DNA from: Planctomycetales bacterium
Lineage (GTDB): Bacteria; 4484-113; JAFGCY01
NCBI GenBank assembly: GCA_022646745.1
Contig: CP060262.1
Coordinates: 1,260,001-1,292,000, forward strand
DNA length: 32,000 bases
Reading direction: 5' to 3'
The notes beneath the pieces are model-generated. The model was not told the DNA's origin, made no database searches, and worked only from the letters and a program-made list of their open reading frames with translations. Position 1 is the first letter of the stretch. The number at the start of each line of letters is the position of its first letter. Positions 3,517 through 29,452 of the stretch are shown here, one piece after another. A program made the translations under genes and the position numbers.

Positions 3517-3591
3517 AGTTGCCGTCCAGCGGATGCAGCCCGCATCCGTGCCGGATATGATACCGCCGGGTCTGCCCAGCTGCCGCTCCTT

Positions 3592-3597: not shown

Positions 3598-3629
3598 GGG
3601 TGAGGTTAAAGACCCGGAGTGTGCATCAG

Positions 3630-4220: not shown

Positions 4221-4259
4221 GTCCGGTCTGATCCTCAGTACTTTCCACAGGGACCAGTC

Positions 4260-5906
4260 ATGAGGTACTTACTTGCGTTGACAACGGCAATCGCCGTCTG
4301 CTGCTGTGCATCGTGTGCCGGGCGGACGGAGCTGGCTGCGGATTCCCAGCTGCCGCCCAACGCCCTGCAGGATGCCTGGCAGGACCAGCTGCCCCCGCTG
4401 CCCCCGCAGCGCTCCTCGAGTGGTACTTCCGTTTCCGAGCGTGTCGGCAGCAACTACCTCGTGAAGAGCAGCAATGCGATCGAGGATGGCAACCGGCTCG
4501 ACCTGCTGAGCGGGTCGAACAGCATGGCCTGGGCCTACTGGCAGTACACCGGCGGGCCGCGCGCCGTCACCAGCCTCGAGTTCGTGATGGACGTGCCGGC
4601 TGACAATCAATACTTTGTCGCAGTGCCTGACTACCGCAGTGGCCGCTGGCAGTTCCGCGGGCCATTCGACAGCGGCCGGATATTCCGGGCTGACAACTTC
4701 GACTTCTACTCACCTGGCGGGGACTTCTACGCGCTGGCGCTGACCGCCGGTGGCAACAAGGCCAGTGTGGCTGCCGTCAATGTGACCACGGAGGACAACT
4801 GGCAGTGCATCACCCTCCGTCCGGATGTGTCTGTCAACACGCAGCCCCTGGTGGAGATTGTGGATGGCAAACCGGTCGTGGTCTGGTATGACAAGGACAC
4901 GGATGCCTTCCGCATCCTGCGCAGCAGCACGATGTTCGGCGAGGACCCGTCGGACTGGAATGAGCAGATCTGGCTGTTCACTGGCGACAAGTTCGTGCGC
5001 TACACGGATATGGCAATCATCAACGGCAAGCCAGCCGTAACATTCAGTGATGGTGACAGCCACGACCTGAATTACTTCCGCGAGGGCATGGATGACTACA
5101 TCGTGCTCAGCGGCGACCTGAATGCATCGGGCGGCCGCAGCAGCCTGCTGGAAGTGGACGGGCACGCCGCGATCAGCTACCGAGATGGTTCCGGTGGTGA
5201 CAACAGCCAGGGCGCACTGGTATATATGCGCAGCGGCACTCCGAACGGCCTGCAGGGAGAGGACTGGGAAAGCCGCGTCACGGTCTACGGTGCCAACCAG
5301 GGCTTTGACAAACCGGACATGCAGATTGTCAGCGGCCATCCGGCGATCGCCGCATTCGACTACAGCTTCGAGAACGTGATGTACTGCTGGACCACGGACA
5401 CTGACGGTATGACAGCGGAGAACTGGAAGAACCGCACACTCTATACCAGCAATGACAACCCGGAGTTCATCAACCTGCATGTACTGGACCAGTATCCGGC
5501 AATCGCCTTCAAGGATGCCAAGAACGGTGAGGAGCTCTGGTTCCTGCAGGCTGCGGTGGCGGACCCCGGCGATGAGCTCAATGACTGGAACAGTCCCTTC
5601 GTGATTGACAGCACCGGCAACGTTGGCCAGGGCACAAGCCTGTCAAGCATCAACGGCCGGCCCTTCATCTCCTACCTGAAGGACGGAAGTGGCTCGGAAC
5701 TGCGCTATGCAATCTCCAACACGCTCAATGGCATCCAGGGCAGCTGGCAGAAAGGACTCGTCGAGGATGAGAATGTGCAGAGTTCCACGCTCTACACGAA
5801 AGCGCTGAGTATTGAAGGCCGGATGGTCATCTGCTTCCTGGAATACAACGGCAGTGACATCCGGAATATCAACTGGTGCTGGCGCGAGGCCGGCGGACTG
5901 GAGTAG
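4260..5906 (+). CDS. lipoprotein: shared N-terminal module plus seven-repeat beta-propeller-like domain
   Basis: MRYLLALTTAIAVCCCASCAG (signal/lipobox). aa 64-178 form the module shared with the 6040 and 12872 proteins (..MAWAYWQY..FVAVPDYRSGRWQF..YALALTAGG..). Seven repeats of the pattern x-G-x-P-x-I-x-[FY]-x-D-(n)-L-x-Y follow (GKPVVVWYDK, GKPAVTFSDG, GHAAISYRDG, GHPAIAAFDY, QYPAIAFKDA, GRPFISYLKD, GRMVICFLEY). Confidence 0.8.
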   Translation: MRYLLALTTAIAVCCCASCAGRTELAADSQLPPNALQDAWQDQLPPLPPQRSSSGTSVSERVGSNYLVKSSNAIEDGNRLDLLSGSNSMAWAYWQYTGGPRAVTSLEFVMDVPADNQYFVAVPDYRSGRWQFRGPFDSGRIFRADNFDFYSPGGDFYALALTAGGNKASVAAVNVTTEDNWQCITLRPDVSVNTQPLVEIVDGKPVVVWYDKDTDAFRILRSSTMFGEDPSDWNEQIWLFTGDKFVRYTDMAIINGKPAVTFSDGDSHDLNYFREGMDDYIVLSGDLNASGGRSSLLEVDGHAAISYRDGSGGDNSQGALVYMRSGTPNGLQGEDWESRVTVYGANQGFDKPDMQIVSGHPAIAAFDYSFENVMYCWTTDTDGMTAENWKNRTLYTSNDNPEFINLHVLDQYPAIAFKDAKNGEELWFLQAAVADPGDELNDWNSPFVIDSTGNVGQGTSLSSINGRPFISYLKDGSGSELRYAISNTLNGIQGSWQKGLVEDENVQSSTLYTKALSIEGRMVICFLEYNGSDIRNINWCWREAGGLE

Positions 5907-17906: not shown

Positions 17907-18497
17907 ATGAGCAGCAAGCCTGAAGCAGCGGAGGGAATTTCCCGCCGCGACATGATCACCCGCCTGCTGGGGGCGGGCTGCACGGCCTGCCTTGGCGCAC
18001 TGGCCAGCTCCTGCCCGGGCGGCAGCGACTGGGGCAAGCCGGAGAAGCACGCCAGCGGCATGCCTGAGCAGCTGGAGTTCAATGCCGCAGATGTGCCACT
18101 GAACGGGGTGCGCCCGGTGGTGATCGGTGGGGCGATGGCCTTCCTCGTGCATTACGAGATGGACGGCGCTGAGCAGTGGATCGCACTTGAGAACAAGTGC
18201 ACCCACAAGAAGAGCGCGCTCAACTTCGACGAGGCGGAGCATGTGTTCAAATGCCCGCTGCATGACAGCGAGTTCGCGCTGGACGGCAGCGTGCGTGAGC
18301 GTCCTGGTCCGAAGAACTGGCCGGCCAAGCGCGGGCTGTACCACTGGCCGGTGGAGGTCGACGGGGACAAGGTGCGCATCATGGCGGACGCCGGCAGTGA
18401 AGGCGGCGAGTTCGTATCAGCCGAATCTGGCGACGCAGCTGCTGGTGACAGCGCTGGCAACGACGCAGCCGGCGGCGAGCACGACGGCGACGAATAG
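17907..18497 (+). CDS. Tat-exported Rieske [2Fe-2S] domain (lipo)protein
   Basis: ISRRDMITRLLGAGCTACLGALASSC carries a twin-arginine motif and a lipobox-like LASSC. Rieske ligand motifs are C-T-H (NKCTHKKSA) and C-P-L-H (FKCPLHDSEF). Acidic low-complexity tail. The GTG at 17895 is an alternative start. Confidence 0.85.
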   Translation: MSSKPEAAEGISRRDMITRLLGAGCTACLGALASSCPGGSDWGKPEKHASGMPEQLEFNAADVPLNGVRPVVIGGAMAFLVHYEMDGAEQWIALENKCTHKKSALNFDEAEHVFKCPLHDSEFALDGSVRERPGPKNWPAKRGLYHWPVEVDGDKVRIMADAGSEGGEFVSAESGDAAAGDSAGNDAAGGEHDGDE

Positions 18498-18682
18498 ACG
18501 GAGGTGCGGCGCCAGCCGCACAACGGAGGTCAGACGAAAGTCTGACAATCGGGTTTCGGTTGTCGGGTTTCCGGTTTCGGCAAACGGAGGTGCGGCGCCA
18601 GTCGCACAACGGAGGTCCTGTGCCAGCTTGCATGGAGCTCAACCGTCAGGTTGACAACGGAGGTCAAACGAAAGTCTGACAA
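18498..18682 (+). repeat. array of five ACGGAGGT-plus-hairpin modules
   Basis: ACGGAGGT occurs at 18498, 18523, 18584, 18609 and 18657. Each runs into a GU..AC-closed hairpin: GTGCGGC-gcca-GCCGCAC (18504-18521), GTCAGAC-GAAA-GTCTGAC (18529-18546), GTGCGGC-gcca-GTCGCAC (18590-18607) and GTCAAAC-GAAA-GTCTGAC (18663-18680). The array starts 1 nt after the Rieske stop codon. Confidence 0.8.
18550..18580 (+). repeat. heptamer array (CGGGTTT)n
   Basis: CGGGTTT CGGTTGT CGGGTTT CCGGTTT CGG. The inverted partner AAACCCG AAACCCG ATCCCGG lies at 19777..19797. Confidence 0.75.
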
Positions 18683-18688
18683 CAATCC

Positions 18689-18774
18689 AAAGTCACAAAG
18701 TCACCTAGTCAATTAGTCACTGTGTGACATCTCTAACTTGCTCAATTGACTGCCTGACTTCGTGACTCAGTGAC
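18689..18774. repeat. inverted pair of octamer arrays (xxAGTCAC x4 / xxxGTGAC x4)
   Basis: AAAGTCAC AAAGTCAC CTAGTCA ATTAGTCAC (18689-18720) faces CAATTGAC TGCCTGAC TTCGTGAC TCAGTGAC (18743-18774). Confidence 0.75.
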
Positions 18775-18874
18775 TTTCTCCAACCTCCAAGGCACAAGGA
18801 CACCAAGAAGAATGTGTTGTCGCCACCTGTACAATCAAATTTACTCTTCATTTGCTCAGTAGGACACATTGATT

Positions 18875-19567
18875 ATGAGATGGTTGGAAGACGAAGACGA
18901 CGATCCAACATTGTCTGAGAATAGTTTGGCTGCATTTATTGTTTACTTGCATGCAGTCCTTGCAGACTTCAGATTGCAGATTCCGCCCGCAAGTGCGGGG
19001 GAAGAAACATTGCTGTTGTTTGAAGCAAGAGTTGAAGCTTTGGAACATGACTTCATTTTTCAGGCTTTCTACGCAGATGACTTCATTGATCGAATGCTGG
19101 CAGGGATAGTTTTTTTGTTTAGTTCAGATCCTGCTCATGGTAGTGGCAAGGGAGCACCGACTACTCAAACAATTGAGTGGAACCAGCTTGCGCATTTACT
19201 GGACGGAGGAAGATACTGGAACTATGGCGTAAGCAGACGAGGCTGGGATGAATCGCGTGTTGGCATACTGATGGGTGACCCGAAAATGGAGTTGCCATTT
19301 ACAAAGTTTGTATTATTACTTTTTCAAGGTGTGATTGAGGCAAAGAAGTGCAACCCATGGAGCGAAGATCACAAACCATGGCACACGGCAGATCCAAATC
19401 GAGAATGGACAGCCGACAGATTCCTGGCAAGAATGATTACAGCTTTCTCTGAACTGCTTGACGACGGGAGACTCTCTCCAGACTCATCTTTCATAAGTTT
19501 CGATCAACTTACCGAGATCATGCGGGAAATCTTTTGGTGGGATGGTCTTTCGGCAAAGTCGAAGTAA
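18875..19567 (+). CDS. hypothetical protein, visibly low-GC orphan ORF
   Basis: ATG at 18875; the ORF track uses a TTG at 18869. 230 aa. Codon usage is rich in TTG/AGA/TTT/GAT, unlike the neighbours. No recognisable domain. Confidence 0.65.
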   Translation: MRWLEDEDDDPTLSENSLAAFIVYLHAVLADFRLQIPPASAGEETLLLFEARVEALEHDFIFQAFYADDFIDRMLAGIVFLFSSDPAHGSGKGAPTTQTIEWNQLAHLLDGGRYWNYGVSRRGWDESRVGILMGDPKMELPFTKFVLLLFQGVIEAKKCNPWSEDHKPWHTADPNREWTADRFLARMITAFSELLDDGRLSPDSSFISFDQLTEIMREIFWWDGLSAKSK

Positions 19568-19597
19568 CACACTTGGTGACTTGGTGTTTTGGGTCCC

Positions 19598-19620
19598 CGG
19601 CGGAAAGGTACCGCCGCTAC
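19598..19620 (+). repeat. hairpin-plus-GCTAC element, copy A
   Basis: CGGCGG-aaaggta-CCGCCG-CTAC. It shares the 9-mer CGCCGCTAC with copies at 20846, 26683 and 25652 (reverse complement). Confidence 0.75.
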
Positions 19621-19776
19621 GGTCTAATTGTCAGCTTTACAGCTGACCTCCCTTTCCCAAACCCGAACAGGAAAATCTCTGCACCCCTGCGCCTCGCCGT
19701 TGAAAAAACCCAACCCTGACTGCCTCGTAGCCACTCGCGCGCATGCGCACCGTAAATGTTGGAATTGAGTCTGCTG

Positions 19777-19797
19777 AAACCCGAAACCCGATCCCGG
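19777..19797 (+). repeat. heptamer array (AAACCCG)n, inverted partner of 18550..18580
   Basis: AAACCCG AAACCCG ATCCCGG. The 12-mer CCGAAACCCGAT (19781-19792) is the exact reverse complement of ATCGGGTTTCGG (18548-18559). Confidence 0.75.
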
Positions 19798-19832
19798 ATA
19801 TCCTCAGCCAGGCTTACAGCCTGGCCTCCCTC

Positions 19833-20381
19833 CTAGTTCTCGCGGAAGTCGGAGGGGCTGATCTGGCGCAGGAATTCCTTGAAGGTCTCCGGGCTGGCCT
19901 CCAGCTCCATCTGCTCCTCGCTCGCGATGTCCTGCTCGGTGGAATCAGCGGCCTCTTCCTCGGCCTGCTCCGGGGCCAGCTCGACGAACTTGATGTTGCA
20001 CATCAGATCCTCGCTGACGTAGATCTTCACGTTCTTGCGCAGGGCGAGGGCGATCGCGTCCGTCGGGCGGCAGTCCACCTCGAGCGTGCGCCCGTCGCTG
20101 TCGAGGTACAGCTTGGCGTAGTAGGTGCTGCTCTCCAGGCGGTCGATCACCACGCGGGAGACATGCACGCCGAGCTGCCCGAGGATGGTGGACATCAGGT
20201 CATGGGTAAGCGGACGCGGCGGGACCTTGTTGTCAACCGCCAGTTCAATGCTGCTGGCCTCGAGCTCACCGATCCAGATCGGCAGGTACAGCTCCTTCTC
20301 CATGTCCTTCAGAAAGAGCACCGGCGCCTTCTGGCGGTGGTCGTAGCGCAGATCAAAGAAGTCTACCTTTGTGAGTGACAT
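19833..20381 (-). CDS. bifunctional nuclease family protein (DUF151/BFN domain)
   Basis: ..PVLFLKDMEKELYLPIWIGELEASSIELAVDNKVPPRPLTHDLM..YYAKLYLDSDGRTLEVDCRPTDAIALALR.. is the conserved BFN core. Acidic C-terminal tail. Confidence 0.85.
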   Translation of the reverse strand: MSLTKVDFFDLRYDHRQKAPVLFLKDMEKELYLPIWIGELEASSIELAVDNKVPPRPLTHDLMSTILGQLGVHVSRVVIDRLESSTYYAKLYLDSDGRTLEVDCRPTDAIALALRKNVKIYVSEDLMCNIKFVELAPEQAEEEAADSTEQDIASEEQMELEASPETFKEFLRQISPSDFREN

Positions 20382-20389
20382 CCATCTGG

Positions 20390-20395
20390 ATTATA
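20390..20395 (-). promoter_or_regulatory. -10 box TATAAT 8 nt upstream of the BFN ATG (leaderless configuration)
   Basis: The minus strand reads gtggTATAATccagatggATGtcactc. Confidence 0.5.
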
Positions 20396-20543
20396 CCACT
20401 TCAGGACCGGCGATAGTCCGCTCGCGCAATATCCAGCCAAGGCTCAGCGCCGGGGGCGGGGCGGGGCCAATAAGATATTACGGATCCAAAACGGGTAACA
20501 TAACTCGGAGGGTGACCTCCGGTACAAACCACGACAGGAGGCA

Positions 20544-20609
20544 ATGAGTATGGAGAATTCTCCGGCGCGTCAGGGACAGAGCGCCTGCGCCTGTCGGTAC
20601 CTGACCTAA
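20544..20609 (+). CDS. candidate 21-codon sORF (MSMENSPARQGQSACACRYLT)
   Basis: AGGAGG (20536-20541) lies 8 nt before the second ATG (20550) and 2 nt before the first (20544). TAA at 20607-20609. The sORF sits inside the structured unit. There is no homology evidence. Confidence 0.3.
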   Translation: MSMENSPARQGQSACACRYLT

Positions 20610-20669
20610 GCCGCCAACTATCCAATTTCCCGTTTTCCTAACCCCCCTTCGCCTCCTACGGAGGCAACG

Positions 20670-20706
20670 GCTGCCGGACCTTCCCGGGTCCGGCAGCTGC
20701 GTTTTT
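20670..20706 (+). terminator. rho-independent terminator
   Basis: Perfect 11-bp GC-rich stem GCTGCCGGACC / GGTCCGGCAGC with a 6-nt loop, followed by tgcgTTTTT (T-run at 20702-20706). Confidence 0.8.
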
Positions 20707-20845
20707 CTGCCGACTCGCCCCAAGGGCTCGTCGGTCTGCGCACCGGAGCGAAGCCAAGCTCCGCTCCTTCCGCAAGATGCATTGCCCCCTCCCGGTACGC
20801 CTTGGTGGATTGATTCCTTCCTTTATTCCACTTTCAAGATCACTC

Positions 20846-20868
20846 CGGCGGCAAGGTGCCGCCGCTAC
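20846..20868 (+). repeat. hairpin-plus-GCTAC element, copy B
   Basis: CGGCGG-caaggtg-CCGCCG-CTAC, immediately followed by a heptamer array. Confidence 0.75.
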
Positions 20869-20910
20869 TGATTACTGACCACTGACCACCGACCACTGCC
20901 CACTGACCAC
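20869..20910 (+). repeat. six in-phase tandem heptamers, consensus TGACCAC
   Basis: TGATTAC TGACCAC TGACCAC CGACCAC TGCCCAC TGACCAC. Confidence 0.85.
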
Positions 20911-20964
20911 TTCCGCCGATCCCACCCTGCACCCAGCAACCAGCACCCTGCTCCCCTCTCCTGT

Positions 20965-21858
20965 ATGATCTCAAAAGCGATGCAAGACGGGCGATCCAGT
21001 GCGAATCGAACGGGTGGTAAGGGCATAACGGCCGGCAGGCCAGGCCCAGCCGCCCGATTCCTGCAGCGTGTCCTCCATGTCTTCAGCTACGGCTGCCTGT
21101 CCGCGCTGGTGCTGCCTAGCCTGCTGCTGGTCAGCTGGCGCTACGTGCAGGAATCCCCTGTCGGCGACCCTGTCCAGCGGCCCGGCACAGCGGCTGGTCC
21201 ATCGCGCGAAGCGTCCCAGGGGCCGGCGCTGCCTGCGGAACTGGCCGACGACCTGACCCGCCGCAAGTTCGAGGACAGCCTGGCCGTGCAGAAGCCGAGC
21301 TTCCACGTCGAAAGCACGGACATCGAATTTGGCGACATGCCGGTGGAGCAGCTGGTGCTGGATGCCACGGAAGTGGAGCTGAACGTGCGCGAACTGCTCG
21401 CAGGAGAAAAGGCGCGGATCAGCTCCTTTGGCAGCGCGAAGGTCTCGCTGCGCATCTCCGGCGATGCGCTCAGGGCGCAGCTGCTGCCTATGCTCGAAGC
21501 CAAGGGCCTGCGCGAACCGCGCATCGACTTCGGCACGAACACGGTCAAGATCACCGGCAGGAAGAAGGTCAAGCTCTTGGGCAGCTTCAAGCTTTCCGCC
21601 TCGGCCCGCTTCCAGGTGGAGAATGGAAATGCGATCGGCCTGAAGATCACCGAGCTGGAAAGCGGCCAGCTCAACCTCGGCGTATCCAGCCTGAAGCTGG
21701 ACTTCCGCGAGGAAGTGCCGCCGCTCAACCTCGGCGCGAGCTACGCGAAGGTTGTGATTGACAGGCTGGAGTTCCGCGGGGGCTACCTGCACGTGGAGGC
21801 GCATGCCCTGCAGCTGCCGGCCGGTGCGATTCCGCGCGGGGCGTTGGACGTGCTGTAG
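20965..21858 (+). CDS. DUF2993/LmeA-like membrane-anchored protein (paralog 1)
   Basis: N-terminal TM segment (CLSALVLPSLLLVSW), then a domain homologous to the convergent neighbour (FHVESTDIEFGDMPVEQLVLDATEVELNVRELLAGEKARISSFGSAKVSLRISGDAL..). The start is uncertain; the ATG at 20980 is an alternative. Confidence 0.7.
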   Translation: MISKAMQDGRSSANRTGGKGITAGRPGPAARFLQRVLHVFSYGCLSALVLPSLLLVSWRYVQESPVGDPVQRPGTAAGPSREASQGPALPAELADDLTRRKFEDSLAVQKPSFHVESTDIEFGDMPVEQLVLDATEVELNVRELLAGEKARISSFGSAKVSLRISGDALRAQLLPMLEAKGLREPRIDFGTNTVKITGRKKVKLLGSFKLSASARFQVENGNAIGLKITELESGQLNLGVSSLKLDFREEVPPLNLGASYAKVVIDRLEFRGGYLHVEAHALQLPAGAIPRGALDVL

Positions 21859-21873
21859 GCCGGGATTGCCAGC

Positions 21874-22680
21874 CTAGAAGACCTCCATCAGGTCCCGGTC
21901 CAGCATCAGCGGGTCCAGTGAAATCGTGTGCGCCACGATCTCGATGTACTCACTCGTGCTGTGCAGCTCGTCCACCAGCACCTGCGCATACATCCCGCCG
22001 AGGTCCAGTGCCGGCAGGAAGTCGTCCAGCACGAGTGAGAGGTCGCTCACCGTGATGTTCAGCGTACTGAACTGGAAGTCCGTCAACGCAAACCCCACGC
22101 GCTGGTCATCCGTGACGTAGAACTGCCCGGTGGCCGCCATGCTGCGGTCCTGGCTGCCACTGACGCTGATCGAGTTGTTGTCAAACTGCACATGCACATC
22201 GCTGATGCCTTCCTCTTCCAGCATCGGCACCAGCCGGGCCGCCAGCTCGTCTGCGGACATCTTCAGCTTCAGCTGAGCCGAGCCGACCGCCGTGATCTGG
22301 GCCCGCTCACCGCGCAGGATCCGCCGCATGTTGAAGTCGACACCGCTGGCATCGAAGCGCAGTCCCTGGAAGGGGATGTCATCGAGCACGGCGCTGGGAC
22401 TGTCAACGTGGAACTCCGGCAGGTAGCCGGAGAGGGTCTGCCTGAGACTGCCAAGCTGCACCTCAACCATCGCTGCTTCAGGCAGTTTAAGCTCGCGACG
22501 CACGGCCTCGTCCAGCATCCGGCTCAGGCGCGGCAGCAGTACAAGGCTCGCGATCAGGTATCCCGCCAGCAGCAACCCGGCAAGTACGAGGATGTTGCCA
22601 AGCAGCCAGCGCATGACCCTTGCCAGCCTGCCTTTCCTGCTGCTGCTTATTCTGCCCCGGATCCGCTTGTCCGCTGTCAT
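21874..22680 (-). CDS. DUF2993/LmeA-like membrane-anchored protein (paralog 2)
   Basis: TM segment LLGNILVLAGLLLAGYLIASLVLL, then FHVDSPSAVLDDIPFQGLRFDASGVDFNMRRILRGERAQITAVGSAQLKLKMSADEL.., which aligns along its length with 20965..21858. Confidence 0.75.
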   Translation of the reverse strand: MTADKRIRGRISSSRKGRLARVMRWLLGNILVLAGLLLAGYLIASLVLLPRLSRMLDEAVRRELKLPEAAMVEVQLGSLRQTLSGYLPEFHVDSPSAVLDDIPFQGLRFDASGVDFNMRRILRGERAQITAVGSAQLKLKMSADELAARLVPMLEEEGISDVHVQFDNNSISVSGSQDRSMAATGQFYVTDDQRVGFALTDFQFSTLNITVSDLSLVLDDFLPALDLGGMYAQVLVDELHSTSEYIEIVAHTISLDPLMLDRDLMEVF

Positions 22681-22714
22681 TGAAAACCTATTGTGTCGTG
22701 CGGTTTAAACATTT

Positions 22715-22774
22715 AGCAACCTGCAACCTGCAACCAACCCCCTTCTCCAACCGCCCCACTCCTCACTCCTCACT
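22715..22774 (+). repeat. two heptamer arrays: (TGCAACC)x3 and (CCTCACT)x3
   Basis: AGCAACC TGCAACC TGCAACC (22715-22735). CCCCACT CCTCACT CCTCACT (22754-22774), which overlaps the last codons and stop of mutS. Confidence 0.75.
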
Positions 22775-25321
22775 TCTGAACAGTCCCATCTGCAGCGCCT
22801 TGCGCGCCTTCTCGCGGGATTCGCGGCGGGTTTCCTCCAGCTCGGCGAGGATGTTCTGTGCGCGCCTGACAACGCTGTCCGGCAGCCCGGCCAGGGCTGC
22901 GACCTCGATGCCGAAGCTGTCACTGGCCGCCCCTGCCGCAATCTTATACAGGAACACGAAGCGGCCACTGTCACGCTTCACGAGCACCTGGAAGTTCTTC
23001 AGGCGCGGCAGTACAAGTTCGAGGTCTGTCAGCTCGAAGAAGTGCGTGGCGAACAGGGTAAGTGGACGCTCGGGCATCTCATGCAGGTGCTCCAGCACCG
23101 CCTTGGCAATGCTGATCCCGTCGTAGGTGGAGGTGCCACGCCCGACCTCATCCAAGAGCACAAGGCTGCGCGGCCCGGCAGTGTTGAGGATCTCCGCCGT
23201 CTCCAGCATTTCCACCATGAATGTGCTCTGCCCGCTGGACTGCGCATCCTGCGCACCGACCCGGGTGTGGATGCGGGACAGCACCGGCAGCAGCGCGGAA
23301 CTCGCCGGTACGTAGCAGCCGCATTGCCCGAGCACGCAGATCGTTGCCACCATGCGCATGTAGGTGCTCTTGCCACCCATGTTGGGGCCCGTGATCAGCA
23401 TCACCTGCTGGTCCTCGCTGTCCAGCCAGCAGTCGTTCTTCGTGTAGTAGCGCTCGCCGGTGAGCTGCTCCACCAGCGGATGCCGTGCGCCCTTCAGCTC
23501 CATGCGCTGCACGTCGTCTGAGTCGGCAAGCTGCGGGCGGACCCACTTCAGGCGCTTCGAGGCCATTGCCATTGAGAGCTGCACATCGAGTGCGGCACTG
23601 GCGCGTGCTGCCTCTGACAGGCGCTGGCCTTCACCCAGCAGGCGTGCCACCAGCTCGTCATACAACTCACGCTCGCGCGCCTCAAGCCTGCCCTGCGCCC
23701 CGCGCACCTCACCTTCACGGCTGCTCAGCTCATCGGTCACGAAGCGCTCGGCGTTGACAAGGGTCTGCTTGCGCGTGTAATCATCAGGCACCAGCGCCAG
23801 GTTGGCCTTGCTGACCTCGATGAAGTAGCCGAAGGCATTGGTCTGCTTCACCTTCAGCGTACGGATGCCCGTGCGCCGGCGCTGCTCCTCCTCGTAGTCG
23901 GCAAACCACTGCTCGCCGCCACCCATCAGTGAGCGCAGCTCATCCACCAGCTCATCTGCCCCACTGCGCACCACGTTGCCATCGGACAGCTTGACCGGCG
24001 GTTCCTCTGACAGCAGTGTGTCAAGGTAGCCATGCAGCGCGGAGAACTCGCCGATCAGTTCCGCGAGCCTGAGCATCATGGGGTCCTCGCTGCCACTGAG
24101 CAGTACGCCCAGGTCAGACAGCGCAGGCAGGCTGTCCGCCAGGGCCCGCAGCTCGCGCGGGTTGCTGCGCCCGAGGCTGGCGCGCTGTACGATGCGCTCG
24201 ATGTCAACCACCAGCGACAGGCGCTGCCCGAGCTGTGTTGCCAGCGCCGGGTTGTCAAGCAGGCAGGCGATGCACTCATGCGAGGCGCTGACCTGCGTGG
24301 CTGCGGCGTATGGCGACAGCAGGCGGCGCTTCAGCTCACGGCGGCCGGCGCTGGTATGGCAGTGGTTCAGCAGGCCGTAGATCCCGCCGCTGGACTGCTC
24401 GCCGGGGGAAGCCGCATGTCCAAGCAGGTCGAGGTGCTCCACCGTGCGCGCGTCCAGGTGCAGGCTGTTGCCAAGTGGTACGAAGCGCGGGCTGAGCTGC
24501 AGCTCCTCGCTGCGGTAGGTCTCGCGCAGGTAGCGCACCAGTGCATACAGCGCGGTGCAGGCGGCCTGCCTGCCGGCCAGGCCATAGGCCTTAAGTGATG
24601 CCGCGCCCAGCAGGTGCTCGACGAAGTAACTTATGTCATTGTCACCGGGCAGCTCCGGGCAGCGCTGCAGGGCCGGGCCAGACTGGCCCGTGCCGCCGCG
24701 CAGCTGTGTTGTCAGCGCGGAGTCGGAGATCAGCTCGTCCGGCAGCATCAGCTCACTGGGCCTGAGGCGCAGCACCAGCTCGACCGCCATCCGGATCGAG
24801 CGCTCGTCACTGCCCAGCTCATGCAGGTCCACCCGCCCGGTGCCGCTGTCCAGGACGGCGATGCCAGTCTGTTTGCCGCGTGTCAGCAGCACCACGAGGT
24901 AGTTGTCAGAATCCTCGGAGAGGTATTCATCCTCGACGAGTGTCCCGGCTGTGATCACCCGGGTCACACCGCGCTCCACCAGCCCCTTGGCCTGCGCCGG
25001 GTCCTCTGTCTGCTCGCAGATCGCCACCACCTCGCCGTTGGCAACCAGGCGGCGGATGTAGCGCACGGCGGAGTGGTAGGGGATGCCGGCCATCGCCACG
25101 CGGTAGTCCTTCGAGGCATTGCGGGCAGTCAGTGTCAGGCCGAGGATGTCGGATGCCAGCACGGCGTCGGGGCCGAACATCTCATAAAAATCCCCGAGCC
25201 GGTAGAACAGGATGCCCTGCTGCTGGGAGTCCTTGATTGCCAGGTACTGGCGGAACAGCGGCGTGATGTTCTCCCGGTCCTGGGGATAGTCCTCATGCAC
25301 TCCGGGGGGCAGCACTGCCAT
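22763..25321 (-). CDS. mutS: DNA mismatch repair protein MutS
   Basis: 852 aa. N-terminal TPLFRQYLAIKDSQQQGILFYRLGDFYEMF, Walker A ITGPNMGGKSTYMR, and STFMVEMLETA / LVLLDEVGRGTSTYDG motifs. Confidence 0.95.
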   Translation of the reverse strand: MAVLPPGVHEDYPQDRENITPLFRQYLAIKDSQQQGILFYRLGDFYEMFGPDAVLASDILGLTLTARNASKDYRVAMAGIPYHSAVRYIRRLVANGEVVAICEQTEDPAQAKGLVERGVTRVITAGTLVEDEYLSEDSDNYLVVLLTRGKQTGIAVLDSGTGRVDLHELGSDERSIRMAVELVLRLRPSELMLPDELISDSALTTQLRGGTGQSGPALQRCPELPGDNDISYFVEHLLGAASLKAYGLAGRQAACTALYALVRYLRETYRSEELQLSPRFVPLGNSLHLDARTVEHLDLLGHAASPGEQSSGGIYGLLNHCHTSAGRRELKRRLLSPYAAATQVSASHECIACLLDNPALATQLGQRLSLVVDIERIVQRASLGRSNPRELRALADSLPALSDLGVLLSGSEDPMMLRLAELIGEFSALHGYLDTLLSEEPPVKLSDGNVVRSGADELVDELRSLMGGGEQWFADYEEEQRRRTGIRTLKVKQTNAFGYFIEVSKANLALVPDDYTRKQTLVNAERFVTDELSSREGEVRGAQGRLEARERELYDELVARLLGEGQRLSEAARASAALDVQLSMAMASKRLKWVRPQLADSDDVQRMELKGARHPLVEQLTGERYYTKNDCWLDSEDQQVMLITGPNMGGKSTYMRMVATICVLGQCGCYVPASSALLPVLSRIHTRVGAQDAQSSGQSTFMVEMLETAEILNTAGPRSLVLLDEVGRGTSTYDGISIAKAVLEHLHEMPERPLTLFATHFFELTDLELVLPRLKNFQVLVKRDSGRFVFLYKIAAGAASDSFGIEVAALAGLPDSVVRRAQNILAELEETRRESREKARKALQMGLFRSEE

Positions 25322-25329
25322 GGGAAGAC

Positions 25330-25335
25330 ATTATA
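25330..25335 (-). promoter_or_regulatory. -10 box TATAAT 8 nt upstream of the mutS ATG (leaderless configuration)
   Basis: The minus strand reads ccttaTATAATgtcttcccATG. Confidence 0.5.
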
Positions 25336-25341
25336 TAAGGG

Positions 25342-25424
25342 AGCAGAAAGCAGATAACAGAAAGCAGACTTGATTGAACGCACGACCGAGTCTGCTCTCG
25401 GCTTTCTGCTCTCAGCTTTCTACC
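25342..25424. repeat. inverted pair of heptamer arrays (AGCAGAA)x4 / (TTCTGCT-type)x5
   Basis: AGCAGAA AGCAGAT AACAGAA AGCAGAC (25342-25369), a 20-nt spacer, then GTCTGCT CTCGGCT TTCTGCT CTCAGCT TTCTACC (25390-25424). The inner 7 nt pair perfectly (AGCAGAC/GTCTGCT). Confidence 0.8.
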
Positions 25425-25602
25425 CCTTCGGAATGATCTGCTCCACATGCGCGATGCTCAGCAGGCGCGGGCCCTGGTTGTCCACATCGACCAGGAGGAA
25501 GCCGTTGTCGCTGCCCTTGATCACGCCGTGGATCGGCTGGCCGGAGACGGAGATGATCACGCCCTGGCCGGACTGGATGTACTCGTCAATGTAGCTGCTC
25601 AT
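25420..25602 (-). CDS. small (60 aa) protein with an Sm/Hfq-like sequence pattern (tentative)
   Basis: MSSYIDEYIQSGQGVIISVSGQPIHGVIKGSDNGFLLVDVDNQGPRLLSIAHVEQIIPKG. TATCAT lies 6 nt upstream of the ATG. The hydrophobic/Gly/Asp spacing resembles the Sm1 and Sm2 motifs. The ORF track extends to 25716 across repeat DNA. Confidence 0.45.
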   Translation of the reverse strand: MSSYIDEYIQSGQGVIISVSGQPIHGVIKGSDNGFLLVDVDNQGPRLLSIAHVEQIIPKG

Positions 25603-25623
25603 GCAGTGATGATAGCGCGAAAA

Positions 25624-25651
25624 GGGAACGGGGAATGGGGAACTGGGAACT
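25624..25651 (+). repeat. four tandem heptamers GGGAAC(G/T)
   Basis: GGGAACG GGGAATG GGGAACT GGGAACT, directly abutting hairpin-GCTAC copy D. Confidence 0.8.
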
Positions 25652-25674
25652 GTAGCGGCGACACTCATGTCGCT
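25652..25674 (-). repeat. hairpin-plus-GCTAC element, copy D (reverse orientation)
   Basis: GTAGCGGCGACACTCATGTCGCT matches the reverse complement of copy C (26683..26705) at 22 of 23 positions. Confidence 0.8.
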
Positions 25675-25685
25675 GGGAGTGTTTT

Positions 25686-25772
25686 GAGCAATGAAGAATG
25701 AGCAATGAGCCTGCATTGGTTCGAGGTTATCTCAGCCTGCTTTGGCTCATTGCTCCTCACTCACTCTTCATC
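25686..25772. repeat. inverted pair of heptamer arrays (GAGCAAT-type / GCTCATT-type) with a perfect 11-bp inverted repeat
   Basis: GAGCAAT GAAGAAT GAGCAAT GAGC (25686-25710) faces GCTCATT GCTCCTC ACTCACT CTTCATC (25745-25772). GAGCAATGAGC (25700-25710) pairs with GCTCATTGCTC (25745-25755). Confidence 0.8.
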
Positions 25773-25773
25773 G

Positions 25774-25998
25774 CTAGCTTCCCATCCCGCAGCCTGCCAG
25801 CACGAGCAGCAGCACTGCCAGCATCAGCGGGAGACTGCAGGGGAATGTGATGCAGGATGCGATCAGGCAGCCATCCGCCGCGAGGCTGCAGCACCAGCCG
25901 TCCGGGTCAATCCCGCTTCGTCCTGCGGATGTGCGTTTCGGCATCTCCTGCGAGCTTTCATCCATCCAGCTGGGTGGCTTCTGTGCGTAGTAGCCCAT
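25774..25998 (-). CDS. small Cys-rich protein with a C-terminal hydrophobic anchor (hypothetical)
   Basis: 74 aa. GAGGA lies 3 nt upstream of the ATG. G/C third-position bias is consistent with coding. Sequence ..DPDGWCCSLAADGCLIASCITFPCSLPLMLAVLLLVLAGCG. The overlapping plus-strand ORF is judged a shadow ORF. Confidence 0.45.
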   Translation of the reverse strand: MGYYAQKPPSWMDESSQEMPKRTSAGRSGIDPDGWCCSLAADGCLIASCITFPCSLPLMLAVLLLVLAGCGMGS

Positions 25999-26079
25999 GT
26001 TTCCTCACGTCCCATATGATGATACGCAGGAATGGACCCATGGATTTCAGGGAATGCCTTGGAGCCGCAACACTGCTCC

Positions 26080-26661
26080 CTACTTCTCCAGCCGGTATGT
26101 GGAGAACAGCATCCCGCTCTCACCCTGTTCGCTGGATGCAAGTTCGAGCCTGCTTTTCGGCAGGCCATGCTCAAACATTCGCTTGCCCTGGCCCAGTACG
26201 ACCGGGTAGATGAACATCCTGTACTCGTCCACCAGGCCCTCGGCGGTCAGGCTCTGCAGCAGCTCGCCGCTGCCCCAGATGTGGATCTCCGGGCCTTCCA
26301 TGGCCTTGATTTCCCGGATCCGCGTTGCCAGGTCGCGGGAGACTATCTCTGAGTTGTTCCAGCTGAGCTCGCTCAGCGTGTTCGTGGCAACGTACTTGCG
26401 TGCGGCGTTGAAGTTCCGGCCGATCAGGTTGTCATCATGCTTTGGCCAGTAATCGACCCAGATCTCATAGGTCCGCCGCCCCAGCAGCAAGTCAAGCTCG
26501 CCGCTGCACATCTGCAGGATCTGCCTGCCAATGCTTTCATCCCGGTATTCCCTGCTCCAGCCGCCATGCTCAAAGCCACCGCTGGGGTCCTCGTCCGGGC
26601 TGCCCGGCCCCTGCACCACGCCGTCAAGCGATACATGCATCAATGAAATGATTCGCCTCAT
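26080..26661 (-). CDS. dihydrofolate reductase-family protein (RibD C-terminal domain type)
   Basis: MRRIISLMHVSLDGVVQGPG..LLLGRRTYEIWVDYWP..IHIWGSGELLQSLTAEGLVDEYRMFIYPVVLGQGKRMF is the typical YyaP/RibD_C pattern. AAGGAG is the RBS. Confidence 0.85.
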   Translation of the reverse strand: MRRIISLMHVSLDGVVQGPGSPDEDPSGGFEHGGWSREYRDESIGRQILQMCSGELDLLLGRRTYEIWVDYWPKHDDNLIGRNFNAARKYVATNTLSELSWNNSEIVSRDLATRIREIKAMEGPEIHIWGSGELLQSLTAEGLVDEYRMFIYPVVLGQGKRMFEHGLPKSRLELASSEQGESGMLFSTYRLEK

Positions 26662-26682
26662 CGCGTTCTCCTTAGGTCATCC

Positions 26683-26705
26683 GGCGACATGAGTGTCGCC
26701 GCTAC
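26683..26705 (+). repeat. hairpin-plus-GCTAC element, copy C
   Basis: GGCGAC-atgagt-GTCGCC-GCTAC, followed by the heptamers TGCCCAC TGCCCAC TGACTTC TGATCGC TGACTAC (26706-26740). Confidence 0.8.
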
Positions 26706-26736
26706 TGCCCACTGCCCACTGACTTCTGATCGCTGA

Positions 26737-27183
26737 CTACTGGTTGATCTCCGGTTCGACGAGCAGGGCCAGCTTCTGCAGTGACTGCTGCCAGCCGAGG
26801 TAGCAGGCCTCCAGCGGAATCACGTCCGGCACTCCCTCCTGCACGATGTGCAGTTCAGTGCCGACGCTGACCTCGCGCAGCGTGACCGTGACCTTCATCT
26901 CGCCCGGCAGGTTGGTCTCGTCGTCAAACTTGTCCGTGTACACGAGGCGCTCATTGGGGACCACCTCGATGTAGCGGCCACCGAAGGAATGGCTGTGCCC
27001 GGTGGTGAAGTTGCGAAACGACATGTGGAAGCCGCCGCCGATCCTGACATCTATGTTGTCAACGGTGCAGAGGTAGCCATATGGCGGGTTCCAGCTTGCA
27101 ACGGCATCCGCTTCAGTGAAGGCGCGGTAGAGCTTTTCGGGGCTGGTGGCGATCACGCGGTGCAGCTTGACTGTGTTTGGCAT
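26737..27183 (-). CDS. SRPBCC (Aha1-like) domain protein
   Basis: ..HRVIATSPEKLYRAFTEADAVASWNPP..GGGFHMSFRNFTTGHSHSFGGRYIEVVPNERLVYTDKFDD... AGGAG lies 6 nt upstream. Confidence 0.85.
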   Translation of the reverse strand: MPNTVKLHRVIATSPEKLYRAFTEADAVASWNPPYGYLCTVDNIDVRIGGGFHMSFRNFTTGHSHSFGGRYIEVVPNERLVYTDKFDDETNLPGEMKVTVTLREVSVGTELHIVQEGVPDVIPLEACYLGWQQSLQKLALLVEPEINQ

Positions 27184-27219
27184 CTGATACTCCTGGTTGA
27201 CTGCCGCCTCGCTGTTTGG

Positions 27220-27828
27220 TCAGCGGGGGCTGAAAAGTAGTTCAATGTAGCGGCGCAGGTGCGCAATGCTGTCCGCGGCAATCGCTGTATCGCCGGTCGC
27301 CTTGGCGAGGATGAATGCGCCCTGGATCACGGCCTGGGTATGCAGCGCCACGCTTGCGGCAGTCCAGTCAGCTCTGTTGCCAGACTGCTCAATCGCCGCC
27401 TCAATGTCCGCCTCAAGCGTGCGGGCATGTGCCGTGATGCTGCGCTCGCAGGCCGCCACGAGGTCCGGCCGGGTGAGGTAGGCCTCCTGCGTGATCATGC
27501 CAGCGAAGCAGGTGTAGTCCGGCAGCTCCCCCTGCAGCAGCTCCCGGCGGAAGTCGATGTAGGCCAGCAGGCGCTCCAGCGGGTCCTCGATGCGGTGGTA
27601 CTCCGCGGATGCGAACAGTCCGCCGGTCAGCGCATCCCAGTGCGCCACGGCGGCCAGCGCAAGCTCATCCTTGCTCTTGAAATGGTGGAAGAAGCTGCCC
27701 TTCGTCACTCCGGCTTCAGCGCAGATATCTTCGATCCGCGTGGCGGTGTAACCCTTGGCGCGCACGATCTGCAGGGTGGCATTCAGCAGCCGTGTCCGTG
27801 AATCAACTTGTTTTGCTTCGTGTTCCAT
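27220..27828 (-). CDS. TetR/AcrR-family transcriptional regulator
   Basis: RTRLLNATLQIVRAKGYTATRIEDICAEAGVTKGSFFHHFKSKDELA is the TetR HTH. The ATG at 27828 is taken as the start; the GTG at 27834 is an alternative. The start lies inside the operator palindrome. Confidence 0.88.
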   Translation of the reverse strand: MEHEAKQVDSRTRLLNATLQIVRAKGYTATRIEDICAEAGVTKGSFFHHFKSKDELALAAVAHWDALTGGLFASAEYHRIEDPLERLLAYIDFRRELLQGELPDYTCFAGMITQEAYLTRPDLVAACERSITAHARTLEADIEAAIEQSGNRADWTAASVALHTQAVIQGAFILAKATGDTAIAADSIAHLRRYIELLFSPR

Positions 27829-27866
27829 ACCCACTGGTAGGTATGATTATACCGACCAGTGGGTAT
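27827..27866. promoter_or_regulatory. 40-bp near-perfect palindrome (candidate TetR operator) with an embedded TATAAT
   Basis: ATACCCACTGGT (27827-27838) and ACCAGTGGGTAT (27855-27866) are perfect 12-bp inverted arms. An inner pair GGTAT/ATACC is also present. The centre reads TATAAT on the minus strand (27851..27846). Confidence 0.7.
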
Positions 27867-28089
27867 GCTGTCAAGGGGCTTGGGGAAAACTGGAGTGCCG
27901 ATCGCCGAATCGGCAAAAGTAACGTTTATTGCAAAGCAGAAGTGGAGAGACGCAGAACTCAGACAAGAGGTAAAGATTGTGAGGAGCTGCGAAGCGCAGC
28001 TTTGCAGGCTTTGCGGAATCAACCAAGTAGTTGCCGAGCAAGCGAGGCTGCATCATGCCTGAGGCATGACGCCGCAACGCAACTCCTCT

Positions 28090-28145
28090 CTCATTGCTCA
28101 CTCTTCATTGCTCATTGCTGCTCCACACTCCAAACTCCCCACTCC
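28090..28145 (+). repeat. eight in-phase tandem heptamers (CTCATTG-type grading into xxACTCC-type)
   Basis: CTCATTG CTCACTC TTCATTG CTCATTG CTGCTCC ACACTCC AAACTCC CCACTCC. This is the same word family as 25745-25772. Confidence 0.8.
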
Positions 28146-28291
28146 GACCTGCTTCAGCCGGTATAACTATTCCGTGGAATGGATCCAGAACAACATCCTG
28201 TGTTGACCGACCCGCGTACTGGCCGTGTGCCTGGGTTTTGTGTTCCTGATCTCAATGGGCGTGGACGCACTAAAGAAGAAGCCGGGGCAGT

Positions 28292-28431
28292 CTGAATAGT
28301 TCCAATAGTCCGATAGTGAAATGAAGTGTTAGGGACAGCTGGCTCCGCCGCGAATGAATCCTGCCCTCCCGGTCTTTTTCCTCTCCACCATTCTTACTAT
28401 TCAGACTATTCGAACTTCTTCCACTTCTTCC
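28292..28431. repeat. inverted pair of 8-9-nt word arrays (xxAATAGT x3 / ACTATTxxx x2 plus ACTTCTTCC x2)
   Basis: CTGAATAGT TCCAATAGT CCGATAGT (28292-28317) faces ACTATTCAG ACTATTCGA ACTTCTTCC ACTTCTTCC (28396-28431). A hairpin plus T-run (about 28331-28379) lies between them. Confidence 0.75.
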
Positions 28432-28461
28432 ACTGACCAGCCGCAGGCCAGCTCTCTCCCT

Positions 28462-28467
28462 TACAAT
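28462..28467 (+). promoter_or_regulatory. -10-like TACAAT 7 nt upstream of the pyrB GTG
   Basis: cttTACAATattccccGTG. There is no SD in the spacer. Confidence 0.4.
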
Positions 28468-28474
28468 ATTCCCC

Positions 28475-29452
28475 GTGAGTTACCGCCACCTGGTTTCCAT
28501 CCGCGACCTGTCCGAACCGGACCTGCACCAGCTGCTCGACCTCTCCGAATGGTTCATGCCCCAGGTCGAGGCCGGCGGCTTCAAGATGGACACCCTGCGC
28601 GGCACCTCCTGCATCCTGCTGTTCTACGAAGCCTCGACCCGCACCCGCGCATCCTTCGAGGTGGCCGGCAAGATGCTCGGCAGCGACACCATCAATGTCG
28701 GCAGCAAGGGCAGCAGCACCGAAAAGGGCGAGACCGTCAAGGACACGGCGCTGACGCTGAACGCCATGGACCACAACTGCGTGGTGATGCGCCATGAGAC
28801 CGCTGATGCGATCAACATCTTCGCGCAGTATTTCGAGCGCGGGCTGGTCAACGCCGGCAGTGGGCTTGGCCAGCACCCGACCCAGGCCCTGCTGGACGCG
28901 CTCACCCTGCGCCGCGCCGGCCTGCTGGAGAAGGGCCGCCGTGTGGCAATCGTGGGTGACCTGCGCCACAGCCGCGTGATGCGCTCCAACCTGCAGCTCT
29001 GGGCCAGCCTCGGAATGGACACCGTGCTCGTCGCCCCGCCGCAGCTGATGCCGGACGGCTGGGAAGGCCTGCACCCTGAGCACTGGGCGGATGACACAAC
29101 GGGCTACGGCAGCGTGACCTGGGACACTGACATCGACCGCGTGCTGCCTGATGTGGACGCCGTGATGATGCTGCGCATGCAGCGCGAGCGGATGGACGGC
29201 GGCTACCTGACGAACTCCGATGAGTACTCCAAGCTGTACGGCCTGTTCGGGCACCGCATGAAGAAGCTGCCGCCACACGCGATCATCATGCACCCCGGAC
29301 CTGTCAACCGCGGCGTGGAAATCAGTGAGGAAGCCTTCCTCGACCCGCGCTGCCGGATCACCGAACAGGTGACCTGGGGCGTGGCCAGCCGCTGTGCACT
29401 TCTATGCTGGAGCTGCGGCCGGCTTCCGGTGGGATTCGCCGTCACGGCCTGA
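28475..29452 (+). CDS. pyrB: aspartate carbamoyltransferase catalytic subunit
   Basis: LFYEASTRTRASFE (S-T-R-T-R carbamoyl-phosphate site), LGQHPTQALLD (H-P-T-Q), HPGPVNRGVEI. GTG start. Confidence 0.93.
   Translation: MSYRHLVSIRDLSEPDLHQLLDLSEWFMPQVEAGGFKMDTLRGTSCILLFYEASTRTRASFEVAGKMLGSDTINVGSKGSSTEKGETVKDTALTLNAMDHNCVVMRHETADAINIFAQYFERGLVNAGSGLGQHPTQALLDALTLRRAGLLEKGRRVAIVGDLRHSRVMRSNLQLWASLGMDTVLVAPPQLMPDGWEGLHPEHWADDTTGYGSVTWDTDIDRVLPDVDAVMMLRMQRERMDGGYLTNSDEYSKLYGLFGHRMKKLPPHAIIMHPGPVNRGVEISEEAFLDPRCRITEQVTWGVASRCALLCWSCGRLPVGFAVTA

Follow-up and report, generated by a model that had tools for sequence, protein, structure and literature searches.

Intergenic spacers in a 32,000-nucleotide stretch of a Planctomycetales genome (assembly GCA_022646745.1, contig CP060262.1, positions 1,260,001 to 1,292,000 of the forward strand; hereafter the window, numbered from its first letter) contain tandem arrays of words 7-9 nt long, often set face to face as inverted pairs. 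It is well supported that these arrays exist and that they are short-period tandem word arrays of the heptameric simple-sequence-repeat class, of the kind known as short tandemly repeated repetitive (STRR) sequences. It is equally well supported that the dispersed word families, interleaved with GTAG-tagged hairpins resembling repetitive extragenic palindromes (REPs), occupy about 10% of intergenic DNA in this uncultured lineage. Our preferred but tentative reading, to which we assign a probability of roughly 0.45, is that they are dispersed, fast-turnover repeats acting as hairpin boundary elements between leaderless genes. We infer this function from the fixed strand polarity of the arrays, from hairpins that reach from stop codon to promoter, from conserved arms and cores, and from an architecture that is retained when the hairpins themselves are replaced.

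Tandem Repeats Finder and direct reading of the sequence located every array of the original prediction, at or within a few bases of the positions it gave and far above chance. A lag-identity scan found six strong period-7 segments in the window and none in any of 30 dinucleotide shuffles; strong segments at periods 3-6, 10, 11 and 13 were absent from the window. Self-identity at lags 7, 14 and 21 was 0.314, 0.301 and 0.286 in intergenic DNA after 18 kb, and ~0.25 at the same lags in coding DNA and in the intergenic DNA before 18 kb. Arrays of periods 8 and 9 are present beside those of period 7, all of them intergenic and after 18 kb. The first 18 kb, from which the prediction had reported comparable arrays to be missing, indeed hold none: their intergenic DNA, 1316 nt in all, should by expectation contain ~7.4 (Poisson P = 6e-4). 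The sequence of the window is contained in a 91-kb contig of the metagenome-assembled genome GCA_020440665.1. An assembly artefact, named in advance as one outcome that would undo the prediction, can be set aside because independent assemblies agree to the base: L082 and L083 are 100% identical to the window across the arrays flanking mutS, making three identical assemblies, and syntenic relatives hold arrays in the corresponding spacers. The arrays of the window are as follows; z values refer to folding.

18549..18580, + strand: (CGGGTTT)4, imperfect, with a G/T-rich sense strand; the Rieske gene has its stop 52 nt upstream.
18688..18777, unstranded: octamer inverted pair, (AAAGTCAC-type)4 and (GTGACTTT-type)4, with 6-bp helices split by 2x2 internal loops; z -5.4 / -4.0.
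19571..19586, + strand: (ACTTGGTG)2, beginning 4 nt past the stop of the open reading frame (ORF) at 18869-19567.
19776..19791, - strand: (GGGTTTC)2.3 as read on the sense strand; the stop of the bifunctional nuclease (BFN)-domain gene precedes it by 42 nt.
20866..20955, + strand: (TACTGAY/CACTGAC)6.5 and then (CACCCTG-type)4.7, rich in C when read on the sense strand; gene 20980-21858 has its -10 hexamer (TATGAT) just past the end of the array.
22716..22735, - strand: (GGTTGCA)2.9 on the sense strand, in the spacer that separates mutS from the gene that follows.
22757..22774, - strand: (AGTGAGG)2.6 on the sense strand, encoding the last MutS codons and the TGA stop.
25342..25421, unstranded: inverted pair (AGCAGAA)4 / (TTCTGCT-type)5, from the stop of a 60-aa ORF to the mutS -10 hexamer; z -5.1 to -5.3.
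25624..25650, + strand: (GGGAACN)4, C-rich (CAGTTCC-type) when read on the sense strand, immediately ahead of the 60-aa ORF promoter.
25685..25770, unstranded: inverted pair, GAGCAAT-type against GCTCATT-type heptamers, whose core is perfect over 12 bp; z -4.5 / -5.7.
26701..26742, + strand: six in-phase (NNNNCTG) heptamers reaching the stop codon of the AHSA1 gene (Pfam PF08327).
28086..28145, + strand: eight in-phase pyrimidine-rich heptamers, CTCATTG-type and then CTCCACA-type, upstream of a -10-like TATAAC hexamer and a conserved micro-ORF.
28275..28434, unstranded: inverted pair of GAAGAAG/AATAGT words against ACTATT words and (ACTTCTTCC)2.3 nonamers, with 41 nt between its end and the start codon of pyrB; z -2.1, -2.5.

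At least ten different unit cores occur within 10 kb, and words recur at two to four loci within the ~35 kb of the genome that were compared: ACTGMCC at 20866, 26701 and L081 855, and GAGCAAT/CTCATTG at 25685, 25745 and 28090. The AGCAGAA hairpin has a paralog at L081 2085-2170, ~1.2 kb past the window end. At L081 697-896, ~2.4-2.6 kb past that end, (AGTAGTC)3.3 faces (CCACTGA)5.7 with (CTTCTGC)8 in between, after a canonical terminator, so the array-rich zone goes on past 32 kb. The genes that flank arrays are the Rieske-domain gene, a strain-specific low-GC ORF, the BFN-domain gene, two LmeA-like genes, mutS, the 60-aa ORF, a 74-aa ORF, and the RibD_C-domain, AHSA1-domain, TetR and pyrB genes. 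As had been proposed, there are arrays that extend into stop codons, namely those of mutS and of the three ORFs whose ends lie at 25420, 25774 and 26737.

Several familiar kinds of element were considered and discarded. The units are 7-9 nt long and lie head to tail without spacers, unlike the 25-40-nt repeats and unique spacers of CRISPR. Inspection of the gene map, with its mixed gene orientations and housekeeping genes and no GTTRRRY core, ruled out integron attC sites. A three-frame stop signal was rejected by inspection, a stop codon lying within the heptamers of only about half of the arrays, and mimicry of the sigma-70 -35 element fails for want of a general match. No known RNA families and no tRNAs were found.

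The suggestion that inverted pairs could form long imperfect hairpins is confirmed for the four pairs of the window. Those at 18688-18777, 25342-25421 and 25685-25770 fold with z = -4.0 to -5.7 on either strand; the pair upstream of pyrB, 28275-28434, is weaker (z = -2.1 and -2.5). The perfect inverted repeat reported for the pair at 25685 exists as well, at a length of 12 bp rather than 11 (GAGCAATGAGCC / GGCTCATTGCTC). The arrays also follow a strand polarity. On the sense strand, G exceeds C in 11 of the 12 arrays that lie within 100 nt after a stop codon, and C equals or exceeds G in 10 of the 11 within 100 nt before a start (Fisher p = 1e-4), so that 21 of the 23 arrays within 100 nt of a gene end obey the rule that the G/purine-rich strand runs 5' to 3' from the gene into the spacer, whichever way the gene is oriented. 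Every inverted pair is therefore a purine arm followed by a pyrimidine arm, on both strands. A replication-strand bias was excluded, as the polarity follows local gene ends on both strands. Rehm et al. described the same strand bias relative to ORFs in Xanthomonas and Nostoc (PMC4692102).

The relatives used for comparison were gathered by exact-protein and protein-cluster look-ups. They include L173 and L172 (~96% and ~80-90% DNA identity to the window), L084, L085 and L086 (84%, 77% and 76% MutS identity), L167, L170 and L169 (56-60%) and L001 (51%). A metagenome scan with universal MutS peptide patterns gave, among the matches listed, identities of 42% or less. Arrays of period 7-9 make up 7-10% of intergenic DNA in the window, L173, L172, L084 and L085, 36% in L086, 2.5% in L170 and none in L167 and L169.

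Alignment of the window with L172 indicates which parts of an array are kept. Within the units, substitutions affected 3 of 38 positions in a core of 3-4 nt (CAG or TTCC, for example) and 15 of 32 spacer positions (p = 3e-4). At 26701..26742, for instance, the CAG/CTG core was kept and the spacer positions were altered. In the hairpin at 25685-25770 the arms differed at 2 of 56 positions and the loop at 14 of 33 (p = 7.5e-6), while the flanking genes are ~80% identical. One array had gained a unit.

In the spacers upstream of mutS, pyrB and the 60-aa ORF, compared in L173, L172, L084, L085 and L086, the arrays share their position but are variable in length and sequence. In the spacer that separates the 60-aa ORF from mutS, the word family differs from relative to relative. 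The window has the AGCAGAA-type hairpin; L173, with flanks identical to those of the window, has a GGTCAGT/ACTGACC-type hairpin; L172 and L084 have a GAAGAAGT/ACTTCTTC nonamer hairpin; and L085 has a CAGTGAG/ACTCACT hairpin with a REP-like element in its loop. This spacer nevertheless folds as a long hairpin in the window, L173, L084 and L085 (z = -3 to -5) with four unrelated word families. In the three relatives that have the 60-aa ORF the hairpin arm begins at the stop codon of that ORF and finishes at a conserved TATAAT 6-8 nt before the mutS ATG. L086 has no 60-aa ORF and carries (TCTGATG)32, 228 bp at L086 264-491 directly upstream of the mutS promoter, by far the longest array that we observed. 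Upstream of pyrB, L173 has an 85-bp hairpin insertion, and the site corresponding to the pair at 28275..28434 is occupied in L084 by a matching word family. Both filled and replaced sites exist, and comparison with miniature inverted-repeat transposable elements revealed no clear target-site duplication at them. The final MutS codons and the stop codon come from arrays in L173 as in the window, and an ACTGACC-type array is found as far away as L170 (313-356; 58% MutS identity). Taken together, the comparisons indicate that arrays change by gain and loss of units, by substitutions that avoid the core, and by replacement or insertion of whole hairpins.

Other insertions were seen as well. In L172 (8517-9985) an rve-family insertion sequence (IS) with a 409-aa transposase has inserted into the loop of the mutS-upstream nonamer hairpin, which is reminiscent of IS elements whose targets are the loops of REPs. 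Strain-specific gene insertions are likewise located at array-bearing spacers. The low-GC 232-aa ORF (18869-19567), in the array-bearing region 18776-19832, is absent from L173, which has a different low-GC gene, of 195 aa, beside a CTCATTG array (regions concerned in L173: 15369-15465 and 6430-7413). The four-gene block TetR/AHSA1/RibD_C/74-aa ORF is absent from L084 (9103-9633).

The promoters next to the arrays bear on what the hairpins would separate. In every relative examined, mutS, the 60-aa ORF and pyrB have a -10 hexamer 6-8 nt ahead of the start codon, and within the window -10-like hexamers precede the starts of mutS, the 60-aa ORF, pyrB, gene 20980 and the TetR gene by 6-11 nt (regions 25322-25345, 25604-25620, 28455-28477, 20960-20982 and 27835-27851). 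At a distance of 6-8 nt from the start codon, mutS, the 60-aa ORF and pyrB therefore look leaderless, with arrays that end at their -10 hexamers, and leaderless mRNAs appear to be in wide use in the lineage. The usual reading of -10 hexamers is justified here by a perfect TTGACA-17-TATAAT sigma-70 promoter upstream of the TetR gene (27826-27874, - strand). This promoter is overlapped by a 19-nt palindrome, 95% complementary, which is probably an operator. Classical terminators are scarce: 20668-20699 is the single canonical hairpin with a T-run in the intergenic DNA beside array-bounded genes, and over 10.4 kb there were 6 terminator-like sites, compared with 6.6 in shuffles. The terminator scan reported none of the array hairpins as such, which do not combine a GC-rich stem with a T-run as intrinsic terminators do.

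We propose that a transcript crossing such a spacer in either direction would pass first through a purine-rich arm and then through the complementary pyrimidine-rich arm; with the polarity fixed, it would therefore fold into an imperfect hairpin of 25-35 bp starting at the stop codon. The hairpins could serve as terminators without a U-tract, as stabilisers of 3' ends or as insulators, placed between tightly packed, often leaderless-looking transcription units, much as REPs and bacterial interspersed mosaic elements (BIMEs) are in enterobacteria. If they do act as boundary elements, they would explain how packed, leaderless-looking genes are insulated without classical terminators.

Several observations weigh against this role. 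L167 and L169 have no arrays at a similar gene density, so arrays are dispensable, and the first 18 kb of the window manage without them. The arrays at 20866, 22716 and 26701 have no partner, and the array hairpins lack U-tracts. The exchange of the mutS-upstream hairpin at ~96% identity is as compatible with a selfish or mobile element as with selection. The 23 arrays behind the polarity rule include orthologous loci and both arms of single pairs, so the points are not fully independent. A test of arm polarity that needs no gene calls, applied to all fetched loci and phyla, gave 19 versus 8, which is marginal (p = 0.05), and in ~150 unrelated loci, where a crude gene caller made the test noisy, the bias appeared at 3' ends only.

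The strongest alternative is that the arrays are a neutral or selfish by-product, generated by replication slippage in steps of ~7 nt, with inverted arms arising by template switching or palindromic insertion; the arrays would survive only at sites where they are harmless, and their polarity would be left behind by the purging of harmful orientations. Doubtful as it is when taken by itself, a selfish or neutral origin is nearly as likely as boundary elements because array abundance is lineage specific (0% to 10% of intergenic DNA, 36% in L086), hairpins are replaced rapidly and units gained, an IS element and REP-like elements have landed in hairpin loops, and an in-frame heptamer pair is tolerated inside mutS in two related species (L001, P0020). 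This last pair, (CGAGTCC)4 ... (CAGGACT)4, lies at L001 4640-4790 within the MutS ORF (2753-5593); in the proteins P0021 and P0020 it adds ~45-80 residues between conserved domains, and its length differs between the two species. Arrays also coincide with strain-specific indel breakpoints, and polymerase slippage has been invoked to explain why heptamers are over-represented among the simple sequence repeats of prokaryotes (PMC4692102). A by-product does not readily account for the constraint on the periodic core (p = 3e-4), for a hairpin whose arms are far more conserved than its loop and the flanking genes, for the strict polarity, or for word families that recur at unlinked loci and in L170. 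Should the arrays not be boundary elements, they would still offer a clean system for the turnover of non-coding repeats and their attraction of insertions.

At the opposite extreme, and rather unlikely, the arrays would form an organised punctuation system, rewritten at gene boundaries in many phyla by a dedicated machinery (perhaps linked to REPs and REP-associated transposases, or acting on single-stranded DNA), and would not be slippage debris at all. Such a system would combine the purine-then-pyrimidine polarity with a recognised 3-4-nt core every 7-8 nt, and might provide bidirectional terminators or insulators free of U-tracts, or loading arrays for Rho or cold-shock proteins.

A control set of ~150 unrelated MutS loci (2.36 Mb) contained 1.8 period-7 arrays per 100 kb, against 9.9 in the clade of the window, and ~0.1 per 100 kb at periods 4, 5, 10 and 11. 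Inverted heptamer or octamer pairs were found at the unrelated MutS loci L020, L004/L007/L091, L046, L058, L105, L120, L146 and L158, in phyla such as Ignavibacteria, Zixibacteria, Spirochaetia and Verrucomicrobia, and some of the words, AAGTCATT/AATGACTT, CAGATAA and TAACTGA, are near those of the window.

Cyanobacteria, xanthomonads and sulfur bacteria have been known for decades to carry heptameric repeats, for which neither a function nor an origin has gained acceptance and which have stood unexplained since 1990. The original prediction took the STRR sequences of heterocystous cyanobacteria as the nearest analogue and regarded the present arrays as different from them. The analogy in kind stands: like the STRR sequences of Calothrix, Nostoc and Anabaena, the window arrays are head-to-tail heptanucleotide units in non-coding, intergenic DNA, with several word families and words recurring at several loci (for STRR sequences, ~100 copies per genome; here, two to four loci within the ~35 kb compared). 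The reverse complements of STRR1 and STRR2 are ACTGGGG and TGACCAA, and the window has the closely similar ACTGGGA and TGACCAC. Unlike STRR sequences, the window arrays belong to a host that is not cyanobacterial, with a GC content of 61%; they include octamers and nonamers, and as a rule they are paired in inverted orientation. Beyond the clade, the closest MutS proteins are ~40% identical and belong to Armatimonadota, Zixibacteria, Nitrospirae and Halanaerobium, and none of the best matches is cyanobacterial.

The view that high GC, the words themselves and systematic inverted pairing make the arrays a class apart finds no support. Period-7/8 arrays and inverted pairs at MutS loci of other phyla speak against it, and so do the arrays of Xanthomonas, itself high in GC, which has ~185 GGGAATC-type heptamer arrays per genome, in 70-75 cases convergent inverted pairs, conserved in position, variable in sequence and without known function (PMC4692102). 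The GGGAATC and GGGGA(C/T)T arrays of Xanthomonas and Nostoc (Rehm et al. 2015, PMC4692102) resemble those of the window in their conserved and free unit positions ((GGGANTN)n), their inverted pairs and strand bias, and their occurrence in the same spacer of related species with varying length and sequence. They differ in that Xanthomonas has one dominant G-rich word and the window at least ten unrelated words, most of them without G-quadruplex potential; the exchange of a whole hairpin for one of another word family is likewise a feature of the window lineage, unlike Xanthomonas. What is known, then, is the class of heptamer arrays; what is new is polarity tied to gene boundaries, a constrained core, and persistence of the hairpin across word families. 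The lineage offers a dense set of arrays with many words, together with graded relatives, in which these three regularities (polarity, core and hairpin architecture) can be tested.

Of the other explanations, periodic binding, an origin from REPs and their transposases, phase variation and G-quadruplexes would each account for at most part of the data. The cores that recur every 7-8 nt (CAG/CTG, TTCC, AGTCA and others) might be putative docking sites for a protein that binds single-stranded nucleic acid, with cold-shock-domain and S1 proteins, CsrA and Rho as candidates; C-rich RNAs entering genes would make ideal Rho-loading sites. Conservation of the core with free spacer positions is in keeping with this, as are an octamer hairpin that pairs through its cores only, the C-rich and G-poor composition predicted for spacer RNAs heading into genes, and the modest enrichment of TGA, ACT, CAG and GCAG in unit words across the control phyla. 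At least ten cores in 10 kb are hard to fit with one sequence-specific binder, and we consider this explanation improbable. The same candidate proteins were proposed for the TAACTGA repeats that closely precede start codons in Beggiatoaceae, Cyanobacteria and Bacteroidetes (MacGregor 2015, PMC4679880). Those repeats are also direct heptamer repeats with an ACTGA core (compare TACTGAT/TACTGAC at 20866) and a patchy phylogenetic spread, but they consist of a single word, are almost never inverted (one indirect repeat among 170 sets) and lie in 5' leaders, whereas the window arrays are upstream of the -10 hexamers of apparently leaderless genes.

A further candidate source is a family of elements adjoining several arrays that the original prediction had overlooked. 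Four spacers of the window hold GTAG followed by a GC-rich hairpin (GTAG-CGGCGRC...GYCGCCGGA) with a stem of ~7 bp:

19598..19620, - strand: REP-like, GTAG and hairpin CGGCGGTACCTTTCCGCCGG.
20846..20868, - strand: REP-like, GTAG and hairpin CGGCGGCACCTTGCCGCCGGA, directly abutting the following array.
25652..25676, + strand: REP-like, GTAG and hairpin CGGCGACACTCATGTCGC, its core identical to the copy at 26684-26699.
26681..26705, - strand: REP-like, GTAG and hairpin CGGCGACACTCATGTCGCCGGA, between the array and the ribosome-binding site of the RibD_C-domain gene.

These four heads have the features of GTAG REPs, namely an extragenic imperfect palindrome of 20-40 bp with an unpaired GTAG at one end. 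They share with the GTAG REPs and BIMEs of Di Nocera et al. (2013, PMC3733652) a location outside genes and placement in either orientation, and heads of this kind are sometimes paired, as at L081 1323/1500. The tandem arrays themselves are of another kind, without the GTAG tag and not single palindromes. Related REP-like heads occur in L085, L170, L172 and L173. REPs are known to insert inside larger palindromes and even in repair genes, and roles in termination and mRNA stabilisation have been proposed for them (PMC3733652).

The arrays could be by-products of these elements and of REP-associated transposases (RAYTs), seeded 5' of REP heads through repeated cutting and rejoining, or through slippage, and then carried along as the REPs spread. 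Two or more tandem heptamers lie directly 5' of GTAG in four of the six REP-like heads of the genome, the last unit overlapping GTAG (..CAGTGGGCAGTAGCGG..). The same arrangement is seen in L085, and the REP family is common to L170 and L173. For such direct array-to-REP junctions we found no description in the literature. With some 12 of 16 arrays lacking a nearby REP head, and L170 heads lacking adjoining arrays, this origin is very unlikely for the arrays as a whole.

The arrays might instead be contingency (phase-variation) loci in which copy number tunes promoter spacing, that of mutS included. They do lie directly upstream of -10 hexamers, and L086 has 32 TCTGATG copies upstream of mutS, but copy number does not differ among the window, L082 and L083, three assemblies of the window strain, nor between L170 and L171 (99.96% identical), which over 21 kb show 9 single-nucleotide differences and no indels. 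The arrays are moreover imperfect, stand beside housekeeping genes of every kind and lie outside the interval from -10 hexamer to start codon, so we give this idea very little weight. Hypervariability, to which the prediction had pointed, is thus not seen as copy-number change in near-identical strains, although replacement of whole hairpins at ~96% identity is.

G-quadruplex regulatory elements, as proposed for GGGAATC repeats, are just as improbable: (GGGAACN)4 at 25624-25650, nearly the Xanthomonas GGGAATC word, and (GGGATGA)4.7 in L173 match a G3N4 pattern, but the former is the one array in ~16 that fits a GGGANTN or GGGGAYT unit, and most words, such as AGCAGAA, AGTCAC, GAGCAAT, ACTTCTTCC and ACTGACC, have no G-runs.

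Some further features of the spacers deserve mention. Downstream of the Rieske gene (18490-18685, + strand) there are five copies of the motif ACAACGGAGGT, each followed by a short GC hairpin, and L173 (15545-15650) has three; the GGA-rich layout resembles that of CsrA/RsmA sponge RNAs, with no match in Rfam. A conserved non-coding stretch at ~20478-20700 (+ strand), which ends in the terminator 20668-20699, is ~99% identical in L173 (14495-14720) and recognisable in L085 (3100-3330); it matches no family in Rfam and could represent a small RNA or micro-gene that is missing from the annotation. Upstream of pyrB there are conserved micro-ORFs (window 28163-28296, + strand; L084 9290-9400, - strand; L173 6165-6330, - strand). 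A leaderless-looking peptide, M-EW(I/F)QNNI(L/M)C, stops there at a conserved TGA, past which the conserved frame goes on as ..LAVxLG...GVDALKKK; part of the region is duplicated in L173. The first arm of the hairpin upstream of pyrB is formed by the 3' end of this continuation, and the hairpin could be an attenuator.

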